DNA of 63,441 nt, counting the filler, from Licmophora abbreviata (taxonomy: Eukaryota), in NCBI GenBank assembly GCA_900291995.1. It is 9 parts of 9 records of this genome, joined end to end, with 100 filler letters (N's around TTAATTAATTAA, not from the genome) between each part and the next. Parts side by side here need not be neighbours in the genome. Positions count along the whole stretch, not along the records: positions 1 to 12,952 come from OLMU01002945.1; 8 more parts are not named here. The stretch is one strand, 5' to 3'. Both the position numbers and the translations under genes were made by a program. Below the pieces are notes generated by a model. That model saw only the letters and a program-made list of their open reading frames with translations, was not told where the DNA came from and searched no databases. This document shows, one piece after another, positions 9,379-12,941 of this stretch; the first letter of the stretch is position 1; each line of letters starts with the position of its first letter.

Positions 9379-10308
9379 ATGACACAGGAAAGAGCAACAA
9401 GCAAGGCCCCGTGGCTACTCCAGTTGTGGATAAATCTGTATCGCAAAATCCCCCACGTGTACATTCCTGGAACGCGCCATACCCTTGACATTACCTTCAC
9501 TGCCTTGAGTGCCTTGTTCTTGTACGGAGTCAAGAAAATCGGCGAGTACACATTGATCCATGCCTTTCGGTGGCCCGCAGCACGGGTCACCACCGAAGCG
9601 GCCGGCAGCATCGCAGCAATCTGTCATTCTTCCTTGCTCGTCCCCGCCTTGCTCGTCAGTTTGCGGACCCAACCCTATGTGCCATCGGCCAAGATGAGCG
9701 ACGCACCGCTCTGGTGGCAGCAGGCAGTCACGGCGCTTTTGCAATTCTGTACTGGATATATGCTCTACGATGGTCTGGTCAATATCATTTGGTTCAATCG
9801 ACGACCTGACGATGGATCTTTCGACTTGTCGGCCAGTGACTATATGTTTCTTGGGCATCATTTTGCCACAGCATTTTACATGTCCTCGACGCGTTTACTT
9901 GGTGCGGGACATATTTCTGCACTCATTTGCATGTGTGTCGGTGAAGCGACCAATCCACTCCACAATAGCTTTACGATTGCACAGCATGCCAAGACCATAG
10001 GAGACTACTGTTGCAACGGACCCTTTGCACAGCAACTTACCTTTTGGATTGAAGTGGCCTTTGCATCCATGTATGTCCTATTTCGTGTCGTTATTGGACC
10101 CATTGCTTTGTTGCATGTGACGTACGATCTAAATATCACTCCTCGGGGACGAACCAACATTCCCATTGCCTTGCGCGTCATCTTTACGCTCATGATTTGG
10201 GGAGTCGTCTTTGGGAGTGTACCATGGATCCAAGAGTGTATTGAAATGTTGAAGGAACATGTGGGTGGAGAGTTTGTCCGAGAATCATTGCATGCTCCAG
10301 AATTGTAA
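9379..10308 (+). CDS. TLC (TRAM/LAG1/CLN8) domain membrane protein
   Basis: Multiple TM segments with GYMLYD, FLGHH, GEATNP.HN and F..FR.VIGP patterns. Start taken at MTQERA; an upstream in-frame ATG exists at 9211. Confidence 0.78.
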   Translation: MTQERATSKAPWLLQLWINLYRKIPHVYIPGTRHTLDITFTALSALFLYGVKKIGEYTLIHAFRWPAARVTTEAAGSIAAICHSSLLVPALLVSLRTQPYVPSAKMSDAPLWWQQAVTALLQFCTGYMLYDGLVNIIWFNRRPDDGSFDLSASDYMFLGHHFATAFYMSSTRLLGAGHISALICMCVGEATNPLHNSFTIAQHAKTIGDYCCNGPFAQQLTFWIEVAFASMYVLFRVVIGPIALLHVTYDLNITPRGRTNIPIALRVIFTLMIWGVVFGSVPWIQECIEMLKEHVGGEFVRESLHAPEL

Positions 10309-10395: not shown

Positions 10396-11193
10396 CTAAC
10401 AACCCGTCGCACCCCGATCATGACAAAGGTTTGTAATCCAATGTGTATACTCTCCGACCTCCACTTCCAATGCCTTGGCGACATGATCTATCAACGTCGC
10501 AAAGAAATGAATGTTCTTTACAAAAATGTTGGCATTCTGCATGCGTACAATCCCAGTGCATTTCAAACGTTGTTTGGGGGAATGGTCGCCATTATCATTT
10601 TCCAGGTAAAAGTGTAGCTCCCGGCAACACTTGTTCTGGCCTTGGTCTTTCCAGTCGATGGTAGAACTAGGTTCCGTGGCGAAGGGAATCGGAATAACCG
10701 CACGTTTACTCAATGGTTCATTGCGAAGACAGTCAATGACATTCTGGATCTTTTCTTGCATCTATTAGATAGAGGGGCGGAGAGTGTTGAGTACACATTC
10801 AGTGCTGTGCGAACAATCATCACCAGCCATTACCACTCGTCTACTCACTCCATCTCGATAATCCCCTTGCGCACCTCCTCGCTCTGCCAGCTGCCACTCC
10901 TCCGCTTCTTCGCTCCTATACTCCCACCCCATGTTCTTTTTGGTATAGTATTCCAGCGCTCCTCGAGGAAATAGATCTGTTGTGACAGTACTCGCTTCGA
11001 TACTGATATCCTGAATGACGGCAACAAAGTTCCGAACGACGAATTCACCTCCCGGTTGTGTAATTTTGCGTAGATGCGTATAGAGTTCGGCAGCGGTGGG
11101 AAAATGCGGAAACATGAAATTGAGATTCTTGCAGGCTGCTGATGATTGTGGAGCGGATGGTTTTTGCTCATCTTGTTGATTCGAATATGACAT
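10396..11193 (-). CDS. Divergent stand-alone thymidylate-synthase-fold protein, 2 exons, about 236 aa
   Basis: Phase-0 intron 10848-10762 (GTGAGT...CTAATAG) joins two ORF-track pieces. The core pattern resembles ThyA: VIDCLRNEPLSKRAVI, KCCRELHF, LKCTGIVRMQN, KNIHFF..L..VAKALEVEVGEYTH. Confidence 0.72.
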
Positions 11194-11696: not shown

Positions 11697-12941
11697 ATGG
11701 TAAATTTTCGAATCGGCCACCGCAAGAATCATAAGAAACACGGCGCGTCAACGGCAGCCGCAGGAACACCCTTGTCAGCACCCACCGTCCATGAGTTGCC
11801 GGCGGCGACATCACCCGCAGCAATGGCGTCGGGGCGTCGTCAGTATCAACCACCGACGCCTAAACAAGGCTCGAGGGGCAAGATGGGGAACAAAGCTGAT
11901 GATCAGAGCACTGACAAGTACGCTCCAGTGCTGAGTCAACAGTCCTCGGGTGCCTCTTCGATAGGAGATGCATTGGGAGCTGAAGGTACCAATAGCTACT
12001 ACTTGAGCAGTACCGACGCTGATGAGGACATGTCGCGGTCCTACAATGTCATGTCAGCATCGACTGGCTTTTCTACTGGTGAAGGACAACGAGATGGAAT
12101 ACTCATGTGGAACGACTCTTCTGAATTCTATTATACCAAGCAAAAGTATGCATACTTTTCGTTGATCATTACGGCGCTGCAAGTCCTCGTGCTCATGATG
12201 CAGCTAGCCCTCTGCGGGGTCGCGCCACTCGACGTCAATCCCATGGTAGGCCCCTTCCCGGACGCATTCAGTGAGTGGGGAGGCAAGAATGCATATTGGA
12301 TCCAACAAGATCTACAGCTCTGGAGGTTCGTCTCCCCCGCTCTATTGCAGGTCGGCGTCTTGCACTTGTTGTGTAATGCGGTAGTGCAGATGGAAACGTG
12401 TGCATTCTTCGAACGTGAATGGGGAAGTTTCCGATGGCTCCTAATTTATATCTTGAGTGAAGTCGGATGTATCACTTGCTCTTGTGTGGCCAGCCCGGAT
12501 ACGATTGCAGTGGGGAGCAGCGGCGCCTTGATGGGACTCTTTGGTGCCAAAGTAGCACAAGTCTTTTCCCACACTTGCTTTGACAATTACACACGGCCCA
12601 ACGAAGAATCGATACGGGTAGAGCACTTGTCCAATGTCTTGTGTTCTCTCGTGGTCATCAGCGTCTTGTCCTTTGTGAACTACATTGACTGGAGTGGACA
12701 TATAGGTGGACTGGCGACTGGATTGGTGGTTGGCATGTGGATATTTAGTATGAAGATTCGAAGTTGGTGTATCCGATTCTTATGGAGTCTACTCGGATTG
12801 ACACTTACGATTGGGGGATTGGGCGCGGGCATGTACCTGTTCTGGACCTTTGTCGAGACGGATGCCGAACTGGCGAATGTGTGTGAGTACTTTCGAAATC
12901 TCTTTGTCGAAGACTACAACTGCGACTGTTACTGGCAGTAA
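11697..12941 (+). CDS. Rhomboid intramembrane serine protease
   Basis: NPMVGP, LWRF, HLLCN, catalytic VGSSG and WSGHIGG motifs. About 7 TM segments and a Cys-rich tail. Confidence 0.92.
   Translation: MVNFRIGHRKNHKKHGASTAAAGTPLSAPTVHELPAATSPAAMASGRRQYQPPTPKQGSRGKMGNKADDQSTDKYAPVLSQQSSGASSIGDALGAEGTNSYYLSSTDADEDMSRSYNVMSASTGFSTGEGQRDGILMWNDSSEFYYTKQKYAYFSLIITALQVLVLMMQLALCGVAPLDVNPMVGPFPDAFSEWGGKNAYWIQQDLQLWRFVSPALLQVGVLHLLCNAVVQMETCAFFEREWGSFRWLLIYILSEVGCITCSCVASPDTIAVGSSGALMGLFGAKVAQVFSHTCFDNYTRPNEESIRVEHLSNVLCSLVVISVLSFVNYIDWSGHIGGLATGLVVGMWIFSMKIRSWCIRFLWSLLGLTLTIGGLGAGMYLFWTFVETDAELANVCEYFRNLFVEDYNCDCYWQ

Follow-up and report, generated by a model that had tools for sequence, protein, structure and literature searches.

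A family of small thymidylate synthase relatives in diatoms and dinoflagellates that may act at C5 of uracil nucleotides

The window analyzed here, a stretch of 63,441 nucleotides (filler included) from Licmophora abbreviata, carries a diatom-type nuclear gene for a small relative of thymidylate synthase (TS). The 236-residue product belongs to a very strongly conserved and uncharacterized marine-protist family, most closely akin to phage enzymes for the synthesis of modified DNA bases. We give even weight, for and against, to the view that the family is a marine-protist descendant or cousin of the phage hypermodification enzymes and acts on C5 of a uracil nucleotide without folate, in a reaction that would be new to eukaryotes, either synthesis of 5-hydroxy-(d)UMP or removal of a C5 group by a cysteine relay. 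The substrate, cofactor, product and cellular role set out below are those that we infer for the protein.

Gene structure and family distribution

The gene lies on the minus strand at positions 10396-11193 and was modeled as two exons separated by a single predicted intron (Table 1). Exon 1 encodes a low-complexity N-terminus followed by the N-terminal half of the TS fold with the family motif R-G-G-x-Q-G-D-Y-R. It could be aligned to the homologues over its full length (alignment A1), and residues 21-100 have pLDDT values of 90-98 in the AlphaFold2 model. An intron had been proposed in the initial annotation, and alignment A1 shows its 29 codons as a precise insertion that all 13 of the 13 homologues lack, several of these being transcriptome-derived. 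The gene itself was upheld by the gene model, the profile alignment and the AlphaFold model. The window protein alone has an 8-residue loop insertion relative to its homologues; a second intron at this loop was rejected because 24 nt is too short and reads in frame. Contamination was likewise rejected, owing to the intron and to the gene neighbors in the window, which are ordinary eukaryotic genes. A tblastn search of the 63-kb window with E. coli ThyA and the phage partner proteins described below gave chance matches only (E at least 0.57).

Table 1 Features of the gene, with residues in spliced numbering
Feature	Positions	Strand	Basis
Exon 1 (residues 1-115, 115 aa)	10849..11193	-	Starts with the first ATG in the open frame, at 11193
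Predicted phase-0 spliceosomal intron, 87 nt, GTGAGT...TAATAG	10762..10848	-	In-frame TAA TAG at 3' end
Exon 2 (residues 116-236, 121 aa), catalytic half of TS fold	10399..10761	-	Pfam, profile and hhalign matches
S133-K134-R135, equivalent to ThyA S-R126-R127, phosphate clamp lent to partner subunit	10702..10710	-	hhalign
K159-C160-C161-R162; C160 equivalent to catalytic Cys146, C161 at His147 position	10621..10632	-	Profile against PDB plus hhalign
R188-M189-Q190-N191, equivalent to R166-S167-C168-D169	10534..10545	-	hhalign plus MAFFT
K197-N198; N198 equivalent to uracil-reading Asn177, one residue nearer R188 than in ThyA	10513..10518	-	hhalign
C228...C236, C-terminal tail ending in Cys; ThyA His207/Tyr209 pair missing	10399..10425	-	MAFFT
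Stop codon TAG, directly behind C-terminal Cys236	10396..10398	-	

Homologues are 53-71% identical (local BLASTP) and form a tight clade of 122 sequences from diatoms, dinoflagellates, one centrohelid and two bacterial MAGs, the gene being common to many diatom genera. A sister clade, here called distant, was found in phages and bacteria, and in the tree the family is split from ThyA by a branch with an SH-aLRT value of 99. The rewired active site is not limited to this one gene: the changes are fixed in all 122 tight-clade sequences and define the whole family. Horizontal acquisition, also suggested, applies only to deep ancestry: the eukaryotic clade may have arisen from phages or bacteria, although the tree does not show such an origin; recent transfer into the L. 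abbreviata genome was rejected, given the eukaryotic neighbor genes and the many diatom genera that share the gene. A scan of viral contigs with alignment A1 gave 130 pattern matches, of which none was confirmed. A search for longer forms returned only two proteins, one an Effrenium model extended at its N-terminus and the other a TPR fusion, neither of them fused to DHFR, in agreement with the stand-alone TS-fold protein that had been described. A literature search on TS-like or dCMP-hydroxymethylase proteins of diatoms, and on TS and 5-hydroxymethyluracil in dinoflagellates, found no paper on the family.

Fold and active-site residues

Profiles and the predicted structure together place the relationship to TS far beyond chance. 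When the family profile was compared with the PDB, the best matches were 9iqu/9iqc (E 1.5e-8), followed by MilA (1.5e-6) and classical TS (from 1.3e-5). Profile-profile alignment with hhalign gave a probability of 93.7% and an E value of 1.9e-7 over 90 columns against E. coli ThyA, 8.2e-12 against the TS homologue of Acinetobacter phage Maestro and, as the strongest match, 4.7e-17 against Enterococcus phage Planchet PLANC_65 (probability 98.8%, 36% identity, 103 columns). The AlphaFold2 model of the 236-residue protein (pLDDT 85, pTM 0.82) was aligned by VIA-align to 9iqu, AfhB with dCMP, with a Z score of 19.0 (rmsd 3.1 Å, 188 residues aligned) and to 9iqc, titled as a riboflavin-dependent monooxygenase with dCMP and FAD, with a Z score of 18.9. 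MilA structures followed at 16.7-17.6, classical TS at 13.7-14.5, the E. coli ThyA chains being covered only over residues 1-213 of 264, and T4 dCMP hydroxymethylase at 14.1. Foldseek gave 396 PDB matches at E ≤ 0.001, in the same order and all TS-family among the matches listed, so that the fold check proposed in the initial annotation (AlphaFold plus Foldseek) returned TS-fold proteins at the top. The VIA-align output also lists 4f2v, a hydrolase designed de novo.

A dimer was predicted from two copies of homologue P0010 with a score of 0.84 (best of three controls, 0.00), past a mark that 20 of 30 known one-chain pairs attained, as against 1 of 23 proteins with single-chain structures, a result that the predictor may owe to TS dimers that are already solved. 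The runs agreed on at least 86% of contacts, with a partner pLDDT of at least 83, and the SKR segment is placed in the interface, in contact with the R188 region of the second copy. The modeled fold and the equivalents of Cys146, Arg166 and Arg127' make the protein a member of the TS/dCMP hydroxymethylase superfamily.

Residue equivalences were taken from hhalign to E. coli ThyA and from a MAFFT alignment with six comparators, and conservation was counted over the 122 tight-clade plus 22 distant-clade sequences (144 in total). The initial by-eye changes SRR to SKR, PCH to KCC and RSCD to RMQN, as well as the retained Asn177 with its spacing shorter by one residue, were reproduced by hhalign, in which K159-C160-C161 matches P145-C146-H147 of ThyA. 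The nucleophilic Cys is retained, as had been noted, C160 being present in every tight (122/122) and every distant (22/22) sequence. R135, R188 and Q190 are invariant in all 144, K197 and N198 in both clades (122/122 and 22/22), and K134 is found in 121 of 122 tight sequences. In contrast, the folate-activating Asp169 is replaced throughout (144/144), by Asn191 in 122/122 tight sequences and by Ala in 21/22 distant ones, and Gly173 falls in a one-residue deletion in both alignments. The position of Leu143 is Gln in the window protein and in 110/122 tight sequences and Glu in 11/22 distant sequences. Cysteines are a mark of the tight clade: C161 (122/122; Leu, Met or Val in 20/22 distant sequences), C183 (120/122), C228 (116/122) and the C-terminal C236 (113/122), the last two being lacking in the distant clade. 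The protein ends 14 residues past H222, and the folate-closing C-terminal segment of ~50 residues is absent. K159, R162, E163 and K197 are invariant charged residues specific to the family.

The reported change of H207/Y209 to C/D stood in part. The His/Tyr pair is lost, but the exact C/D pairing depends on the alignment: MAFFT deletes the His207 column, in which all six comparators, the AfhB-type Maestro protein included, have His, and there is no conserved Tyr. The same can be said of the claim that the substrate-reading residues had been changed, which is valid for the His/Tyr pair that reads the 3'-OH, whereas the phosphate and base readers are mostly kept, Arg126 being replaced conservatively by Lys. 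As the equivalents of Arg166, Arg127 and Asn177 are invariant and Arg126 has become Lys, the substrate is probably still a uracil mononucleotide. With the folate-activating Asp lost, as well as the His/Tyr pair that reads the 3'-OH, a reaction other than dTMP synthesis is the sensible reading, and the new substrate or reaction put forward in the initial annotation remains a hypothesis.

These residues bear on two further readings. Fold, dimer and the equivalents of Cys146, Arg166, Arg127 and Asn177 are shared with canonical ThyA/DHFR-TS (EC 2.1.1.45), and homologues are named 'thymidylate synthase' by some sources, as would be expected of an ordinary divergent dTMP synthase that backs up DHFR-TS. 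Judged by sequence such an identity is very unlikely, since the protein lacks Asp169, Gly173, the His207/Tyr209 pair and the C-terminal segment, the branch noted above separates the family from ThyA and all curated cut-offs are missed. Exon 2 alone scored 19.9 bits (E 4.4e-4) with Pfam PF00303, under the 24.3-bit cut-off, and 21.1 bits with NCBIfam NF002495, for which homologue P0010 gave 29 bits and the cut-off is 327. The NCBIfam model TIGR03283, for methanogen-type TS, was matched by 18 of 24 family members (best E 1.5e-9), but exon 2 scored 18.2 bits and P0010 25.6 bits against a cut-off of 174.55, and so the family is not a member of that short TS group, despite the similar length.

The second reading is an enzyme acting on a polymer, modifying uracil in RNA or DNA, or a nucleotide-binding regulator built on the retained fold. 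Homologue P0090 is fused to a cold-shock (nucleic-acid-binding) domain, the 3'-OH readers His207/Tyr209 are lost and many family-specific charged residues (K159, R162, E163, K197) are invariant, all of which would suit such a role. We nevertheless give it only a slim chance: the cold-shock fusion is a single case among the 120 matches listed, and such fusions are common in dinoflagellates; the phosphate clamp and closed dimeric TS pocket are kept; and the invariant nucleophile speaks for catalysis.

Candidate reactions at C5

Our best explanation, held tentatively and at clearly less than even confidence, is by analogy an AfhB-like flavin/O2 hydroxylase acting on a uracil nucleotide. A homodimeric TS-fold enzyme would still bind a uracil mononucleotide, with the phosphate held by Arg188 and by Lys134 and Arg135 of the partner subunit and uracil O4/N3-H read by Asn198, and addition of Cys160 to C6 would activate C5. 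Given the replacement of Asp169 by Asn191, the deletion of Gly173 and the absence of the last ~50 folate-closing residues, methylene-tetrahydrofolate would not be usable as it is in ThyA, and C5 would therefore react with a non-folate partner. The chemistry would most likely be that of the phage flavin/O2-dependent dCMP 5-hydroxylases (AfhB, RB69 gp48), but on uracil, giving 5-hydroxy-UMP or 5-hydroxy-dUMP for a modified nucleotide, a nucleic-acid base or a metabolite.

According to PMC13326640, the 5hodCMP synthases carry flavin and use O2, Asp169 to Asn is diagnostic of them, their signature also includes Asn177 to Asp and Leu143 to Glu, the Asn177 position decides between uracil and cytosine, and Acinetobacter phage Maestro is among the phages with arabinosylated 5hodC. 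The tight clade has the diagnostic Asn (N191), and Maestro shows R-S-Q-N in the same columns; at the other two positions the family has Asn (144/144) and, in most tight-clade sequences, Gln. The flavin/O2-dependent phage 5-hydroxy-dCMP synthases (HY126 AfhB, 9iqc/9iqu/9ir2; RB69 gp48; DLP3 gp80; the Maestro homologue) resemble the family in a short TS fold of ~235 residues without the C-terminal folate-closing segment, in being its best structural and best PDB sequence matches, and in the catalytic Cys, R-x-Q-N (Asp169 to Asn, Cys168 to Gln) and a G-x-Y-[TS]-H motif. However, identity in the structural alignment is only 15-16%, and the family differs in having Asn (uracil type) rather than Asp at the specificity residue, Gln rather than Glu at Leu143, SKR rather than SRR, K-C-C-R-E rather than P-C-T, and a deleted His207 (present in Maestro); the window protein, moreover, is the product of an intron-containing nuclear gene of a eukaryote, without a glycosyltransferase or kinase cluster. 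Other observations also count against the flavin hydroxylase. Planchet, the phage relative with the strongest profile match, is not of the AfhB type and keeps Asp169, and thus the Gln-Asn pair shared with the AfhB type could be convergent; in the sister clade the Asp169 position is occupied by Ala instead of Asn; and we know of no role for 5-hydroxyuracil nucleotides in diatoms.

The Planchet match also raises the question of a folate-dependent uracil-nucleotide hydroxymethylase or methylase that binds methylene-THF in a modified way, as in the phage dUMP/dCMP hydroxymethylases and MilA. Planchet is annotated as TS/pyrimidine hydroxymethylase, MilA (Z 17.6) and T4 dCMP hydroxymethylase (Z 14.1) are strong structural matches, the group of PLANC_65, T4 gp42 and MilA shares Y-T-H-[FW]-[IV]-T and D-R motifs with the family, and Asn198 fits uracil. 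Dinoflagellates, the DNA of which is known for 5-hydroxymethyluracil, are among the carriers. We nonetheless regard this reading as distinctly unlikely. That group keeps Asp169 and His207, has Asp at the Asn177 position, is longer (277-318 residues) and, for the Planchet-type phage enzymes, is encoded in DNA-hypermodification clusters, the Planchet gene being surrounded by glycosyltransferases. In the family Asp169 is replaced without exception, Gly173 is deleted, the folate-closing segment is absent and all Pfam/NCBIfam TS models score far under their cut-offs. Diatoms, the main carriers, are to our knowledge not known for hydroxymethyluracil DNA. The signature of the folate-dependent hydroxymethylases (T4 gp42, MilA and the SPO1 type) is half present: the Leu143 position is Gln/Glu, and PMC13326640 ties such polar or acidic residues to hydroxymethylation, but Asp169 is replaced and, by the title of PDB 1bjg, the TS D221(169)N mutant fails to promote opening of the cofactor imidazolidine ring.

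The clade-specific cysteines C161, C183, C228 and C236 are left unaccounted for by the flavin hydroxylase, and they figure in its main rival, a sanitizing or salvage enzyme that strips a C5 substituent (5-halo, 5-hydroxymethyl or 5-carboxy) to give back UMP or dUMP. Cys160 would add to C6, the substituent would leave, and C161, C228 and C236 would form a thiol relay re-reduced by thioredoxin or glutaredoxin. Such a reaction requires no folate kit, and only the eukaryotic clade has the extra cysteines as fixed residues. ThyA removes the halogen from 5-bromo- and 5-iodo-dUMP in a reaction that uses thiols and needs no folate, and marine algae make reactive halogen species. We consider C5 removal unlikely, partly because the distant clade lacks the extra cysteines and partly because of the gene neighborhoods, which point both ways.

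In 3 of 3 sister-clade phage contigs a thymidylate-kinase-like gene, a gene for a 291-294-residue protein and the TS-like gene follow one another in that order, by analogy the usual layout for synthesis of modified dNMPs; these phage members beside a dNMP-kinase-like gene look like makers of modified nucleotides rather than removers of C5 groups. The 291-294-residue partner had no match in the Pfam, PHROGs or PDB profile searches. It gave an Atlas match to 2OG-Fe(II) oxygenase/HalD clusters (0.93-0.95, 134-162 shared features) and has an invariant H-x-D...H pattern (alignment A4), which make it a probable 2OG oxygenase, to be taken as a lead and not as a finding. Its AlphaFold2 model, built from three sequences, reached a pLDDT of only 34.7.

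Relatives were also sought in a metagenome scan with 12 of the 22 distant sequences as queries. Over 54 de-duplicated bacterial loci with neighbors, SSADH-like aldehyde dehydrogenase and 2OG-oxygenase-like genes were each found at 12, Zn-ADH at 6 (best NCBIfam match of the class III/formaldehyde type, far under cut-off), uridine-phosphorylase paralogues with an ECF transporter at 3 and 5'-nucleotidase at 2. Neighbors from pyrimidine-nucleoside metabolism and C1-type oxidoreductases would suit C5 removal, but none occurs at more than 12 of the 54 loci, none is common to most, and synteny among related bacteria may inflate these counts. The two tight-clade MAG loci have no neighbors in common, and one sits among transposases.

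Significance for marine phytoplankton

The TS fold was long thought to be limited to folate-dependent one-carbon transfer. Phage 5-hydroxy-dCMP synthases (published 2025-2026) reportedly show that the fold can switch cofactor, and if the flavin-hydroxylase reading is true, this switch would be extended to cellular organisms and to uracil. Should the protein prove an unusual dTMP synthase instead, the finding would be a minor one. The sister clade of phages and bacteria makes the chemistry tractable, as its genes adjoin those for dNMP-kinase-like proteins, a probable 2OG oxygenase and uridine-phosphorylase paralogues.

The carriers, diatoms and dinoflagellates, both rank among the most important marine primary producers, and the degree of identity among homologues together with the many active-site residues invariant in 122/122 sequences argues for strong selection for the family's reaction. 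Its product could bring to light a modified pyrimidine so far unrecognized in the DNA, RNA or nucleotide pools of eukaryotes, or else a new pool-sanitizing activity, which in the case of C5 removal would mean cleaning of the pyrimidine pool in cells living in halogen-rich seawater. Either C5 reaction, if true, would be a new activity of the TS fold and new nucleotide metabolism in major phytoplankton.

Gene model and fold of the TS-like protein

The thymidylate synthase (TS)-like gene was predicted by the initial annotation to use an intron to give a protein of about 236 aa, a model with which the alignments agree; the spliced product is 236 aa long. For a joint search of both exons the intron was kept in the translation, its two stops being written as X (P0003), and its 29 codons formed an exact block in family alignment A1 that is absent from all 13 homologues, several of them transcriptome-derived. 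Splicing is supported by this missing block, and we infer that the intron is removed in L. abbreviata. The flanking TLC-domain and rhomboid protease genes are ordinary, making it unlikely that the gene is contaminant DNA. Note that the protein also carries an 8-residue insertion (residues ~169–176) in the hairpin loop joining two central strands. This insertion is in frame, is absent from all 13 aligned homologues, has a lower pLDDT (79) and is too short to be an intron.

Coordinates of the TS-like gene, its neighbors and related loci
Feature	Sequence	Coordinates	Strand	Details
Exon 1	Window	11193-10849	-	115 aa; starts at the frame's first ATG (11193)
Intron	Window	10848-10762	-	87 nt; GTGAGT...TAATAG; in frame but holds TAA TAG
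Exon 2	Window	10761-10399	-	121 aa; then stop TAG
Loop insertion	Window	10564-10587		8 residues
TLC-domain (TRAM/LAG1/CLN8) gene	Window	9379-10305	+	Convergent with TS-like gene; stop codons only ~90 bp apart
Rhomboid protease gene	Window	11697-12938	+	Divergent from TS-like gene
Phage trio	L003	6344-8522
Phage trio	L004	6298-8519
Phage trio	L005	6192-8543
Phage trio	L009, L057, L062
SSADH-like and TS-like genes	L026/L032	4461-6504
TS-like gene with uridine phosphorylase paralogues	L042	2438-4643
Sphingomonas phage PAU gp182	L090	3719-4426

Exon 2 alone gave weak matches: Pfam PF00303 at E 4.4e-4 (19.9 bits, cut-off 24.3), five NCBIfam TS models each far under cut-off, and PDB entries 9iqu/9iqc at E 0.28. 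The family profile matched 9iqu/9iqc at E 1.5e-8, the CMP hydroxymethylase MilA at 1.5e-6 and classical TS from 1.3e-5, and hhalign aligned the family with E. coli ThyA over 90 columns (probability 93.7%, E 1.9e-7). An AlphaFold2 model built from 46 sequences had a pLDDT of 85 and a pTM of 0.82, its low-confidence regions being the N-terminus and the read-through intron. Foldseek returned 396 PDB matches at E ≤ 0.001, with TS-family proteins in every row among the matches listed. VIA-align superimposed the model on 9iqu with Z 19.0 (rmsd 3.1 Å, 188 residues), followed by 9iqc (18.9), MilA (16.7–17.6), T4 dCMP hydroxymethylase (14.1) and classical TS (13.7–14.5). The profile, hhalign and structural results thus bear out the annotated TS fold and dispose of the possibility that the protein lacks it.

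A family with its own active-site signature

A word-indexed search gave 322 proteins at E ≤ 0.01 from 492 candidates; among the 120 matches listed identities were 53–71% (local BLASTP) and lengths mostly 176–260 aa. A profile search run exhaustively over 1.84 billion representatives gave 417 matches at E ≤ 1e-3. Of these, 199 reached E ≤ 1e-10 and 86 reached ≤ 1e-30, and many were fragments. By source name, the matches listed include diatoms (Ditylum, Thalassiosira, Pseudo-nitzschia, Epithemia, Attheya and others), dinoflagellates (Effrenium, Durusdinium, Polarella, Alexandrium, Biecheleria, Polykrikos and Ansanella) and the centrohelid Pterocystis. In the Atlas, Bacillariophyta make up most of the cluster to which the window protein belongs, and phage TS-family proteins of 222–232 aa form the clusters that come next. 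A prokaryote scan with one genome per species (185,579 species) gave only two confirmed loci, in a Methylococcaceae MAG and a Rhodospirillales MAG (59% identity, best tblastn segment), both with truly bacterial neighbors that are unrelated between the loci. Metagenome contigs of the family's tight clade (see the tree below) were either the same MAG locus or eukaryotic-looking. Only two longer forms were found, neither fused to DHFR, and hence the protein is rightly called stand-alone. The 313-aa metagenome protein P0090, which sits beside the dinoflagellate clade in the tree, has a cold-shock domain (CspA) fused to the TS-like domain.

In a quick IQ-TREE analysis of 54 rows, the 51 family members were split from the phage TS homologues Maestro and Planchet and from ThyA (SH-aLRT 99). 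The tight clade (28 rows, support 92) has basal, paraphyletic diatoms, monophyletic dinoflagellates (98) and the two MAGs together (100) nested inside. The distant clade (23 rows, support 90) includes all three phage contigs, and one of its database entries has exactly the sequence of a phage protein. Owing to long outgroup branches the tree does not fix the root or the direction of transfer.

Residue equivalences to E. coli ThyA were taken from hhalign, in spliced numbering. S133-K134-R135 corresponds to S-R126-R127, Q157 to L143, K159-C160-C161 to P145-C146-H147, V187 to Q165 and R188-M189-Q190-N191 to R166-S167-C168-D169; a one-residue deletion falls at G173, and K197-N198 corresponds to F176-N177. 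An earlier by-eye map was reproduced except for H207/Y209 to C/D, which hinges on the alignment used. The His/Tyr pair reading the 3'-OH is lost under both alignments. Column 207 is a gap in the family and His in all six comparators aligned (E. coli ThyA, Maestro, Planchet, Paraglaciecola virus GD1, Sphingomonas phage PAU gp182 and Bacillus phage Chotacabras). This loss, SKR in place of SRR, K-C-[CL]-R-E, and R-x-Q-[NA] followed by the one-residue deletion and K-N are family hallmarks, none present in any of the six.

Across 122 tight and 22 distant sequences, R135, K159, C160, R162, E163, R188, Q190, K197 and N198 are invariant (144/144). The Asp169 position is N191 in 122/122 tight sequences and Ala in 21/22 distant ones, and C161 (122/122 tight) is replaced by Leu, Met or Val in 20/22 distant sequences. 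Confined to the tight clade are two further cysteines, C228 (116/122) and, at the C-terminus, C236 (113/122). Judged from these columns, the rewired residues mark a family rather than a one-off gene.

Predicted active site and candidate chemistries

Two copies of the homologue P0010 were predicted to pair in the TS manner with a score of 0.84 (best of three controls 0.00). Of 30 proteins solved as one-chain pairs 20 attain this mark, as does 1 of 23 whose structures are single chains. Solved TS dimers exist, so the pass may reflect what the predictor had already seen. At least 86% of contacts agreed between runs, partner pLDDT was at least 83, and the SKR segment contacted the other copy's R188 region. 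The active site would then be shared between two subunits, with the 5'-phosphate held by Arg188 and Lys134'/Arg135', uracil read by Asn198 and Cys160 adding to C6.

The protein ends 14 residues past H222 and E. coli ThyA chains align over only residues 1–213 of 264 (VIA-align), so the C-terminal folate-closing part is absent. Since the folate kit is lost, the proposed mechanism has C5 react with a non-folate partner. A plain dTMP synthase is therefore very improbable, and a modified folate-dependent hydroxymethylase quite unlikely. A polymer-directed or non-catalytic role is also very unlikely, though somewhat less so than plain dTMP synthesis.

The top PDB matches 9iqu/9iqc are, by their titles, the phage HY126 enzyme AfhB with dCMP and FAD. 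According to PMC13326640, phage TS homologues such as RB69 gp48 and DLP3 gp80 make 5-hydroxy-dCMP with O2 and bound flavin, the diagnostic residue of such enzymes is Asp169→Asn, uracil or cytosine is selected at the Asn177 position, and hydroxymethyl versus methyl products correlate with the Leu143 position. A TS D169N mutant fails to open the cofactor ring (title of PDB 1bjg). AfhB and Maestro share the Gln-Asn pair with the window protein, which unlike them retains Asn at the specificity position. By profile, however, the Planchet homologue is the phage protein that comes closest (hhalign E 4.7e-17), ahead of Maestro (8.2e-12). Planchet keeps Asp169 and His207, unlike the window protein's family, and its gene lies between those for a nucleotide kinase, dUTPase and glycosyltransferases. 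Kinship to the flavin branch is thus the best available link, but not an exclusive one. Our tentative choice, held at well under even confidence, is AfhB-like flavin/O2 hydroxylation to 5-hydroxy-(d)UMP, either sugar being possible because the 3'-OH readers are lost.

ThyA dehalogenates 5-Br- and 5-I-dUMP with thiols in the absence of folate. By analogy, a reverse-type chemistry could remove a halogen, hydroxymethyl or carboxyl group from C5, and the extra cysteines of the tight clade would then make sense as a thiol relay; we consider this main rival unlikely.

In PAU gp182, the motif is R-S-N-N (Asp169→Asn) with Asp at the Asn177 position, and the gene adjoins dTDP-rhamnose pathway genes. 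It could represent a further phage DNA system of the 5-hydroxycytosine type with sugar modification.

Gene neighborhoods of the sister clade

In all three viral contigs, which are phages with major head protein and tail fibre genes, the order is thymidylate-kinase-like, 291–294-aa protein, TS-like, the last being short with Ala at the Asp169 position. Genes for making a non-canonical dNMP are usually arranged in this way. The middle protein had no match in Pfam, PHROGs or PDB; its invariant H-x-D...H pattern and an Atlas lead to 2OG-Fe(II) oxygenase/HalD-like proteins suggest a 2OG-Fe(II) oxygenase. We take the trio to be a probable pathway, so far undescribed, for hypermodifying thymidine/uracil in DNA. 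Mom-like and GNAT genes lie near the trio in L003.

A metagenome scan added 80 loci, de-duplicated at 95% identity to 62 groups (7 tight, 55 distant). Within two genes of the TS-like gene in the 54 distant groups with called neighbors were an SSADH-like aldehyde dehydrogenase (12/54), the 291-aa oxygenase-like protein (8), a Zn alcohol dehydrogenase (6; best NCBIfam match class III/formaldehyde type, 235 bits, cut-off 544), a divergently oriented GT4 glycosyltransferase (6), a DIOX_N/2OG-FeII_Oxy protein (4), uridine-phosphorylase paralogues (3; 277.4 bits, cut-off 280.3) and a 5'-nucleotidase (2). No partner was universal, and kinship of genomes may inflate these counts. Two themes recur, oxidoreductases and the handling of uracil nucleosides/nucleotides.

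The SSADH-like gene adjoins the TS-like gene at 15 loci (L026/L032 and 13 more), in most immediately upstream on the same strand and often preceded by the class-III-like Zn alcohol dehydrogenase; in the tight-clade Rhodospirillales MAG an SSADH-type dehydrogenase is two genes off. In L042, L049 and L060, three uridine phosphorylase paralogues flank the TS-like gene and an MFS transporter lies downstream (3/3); an ECF-transporter T component occurs in L042 and L060, with the ATPase in L060. From their gene content, loci of this type look as if they serve to take up and use an unusual uracil nucleoside.

The TS fold and superfamily are already known and the folate-to-flavin switch is published for phage enzymes; in the literature searched we found no publication on the eukaryotic TS-like family. 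What is new, as read from the sequences, is a subfamily of uracil type that is found in cellular organisms, mostly eukaryotes, and carries an invariant signature of its own.
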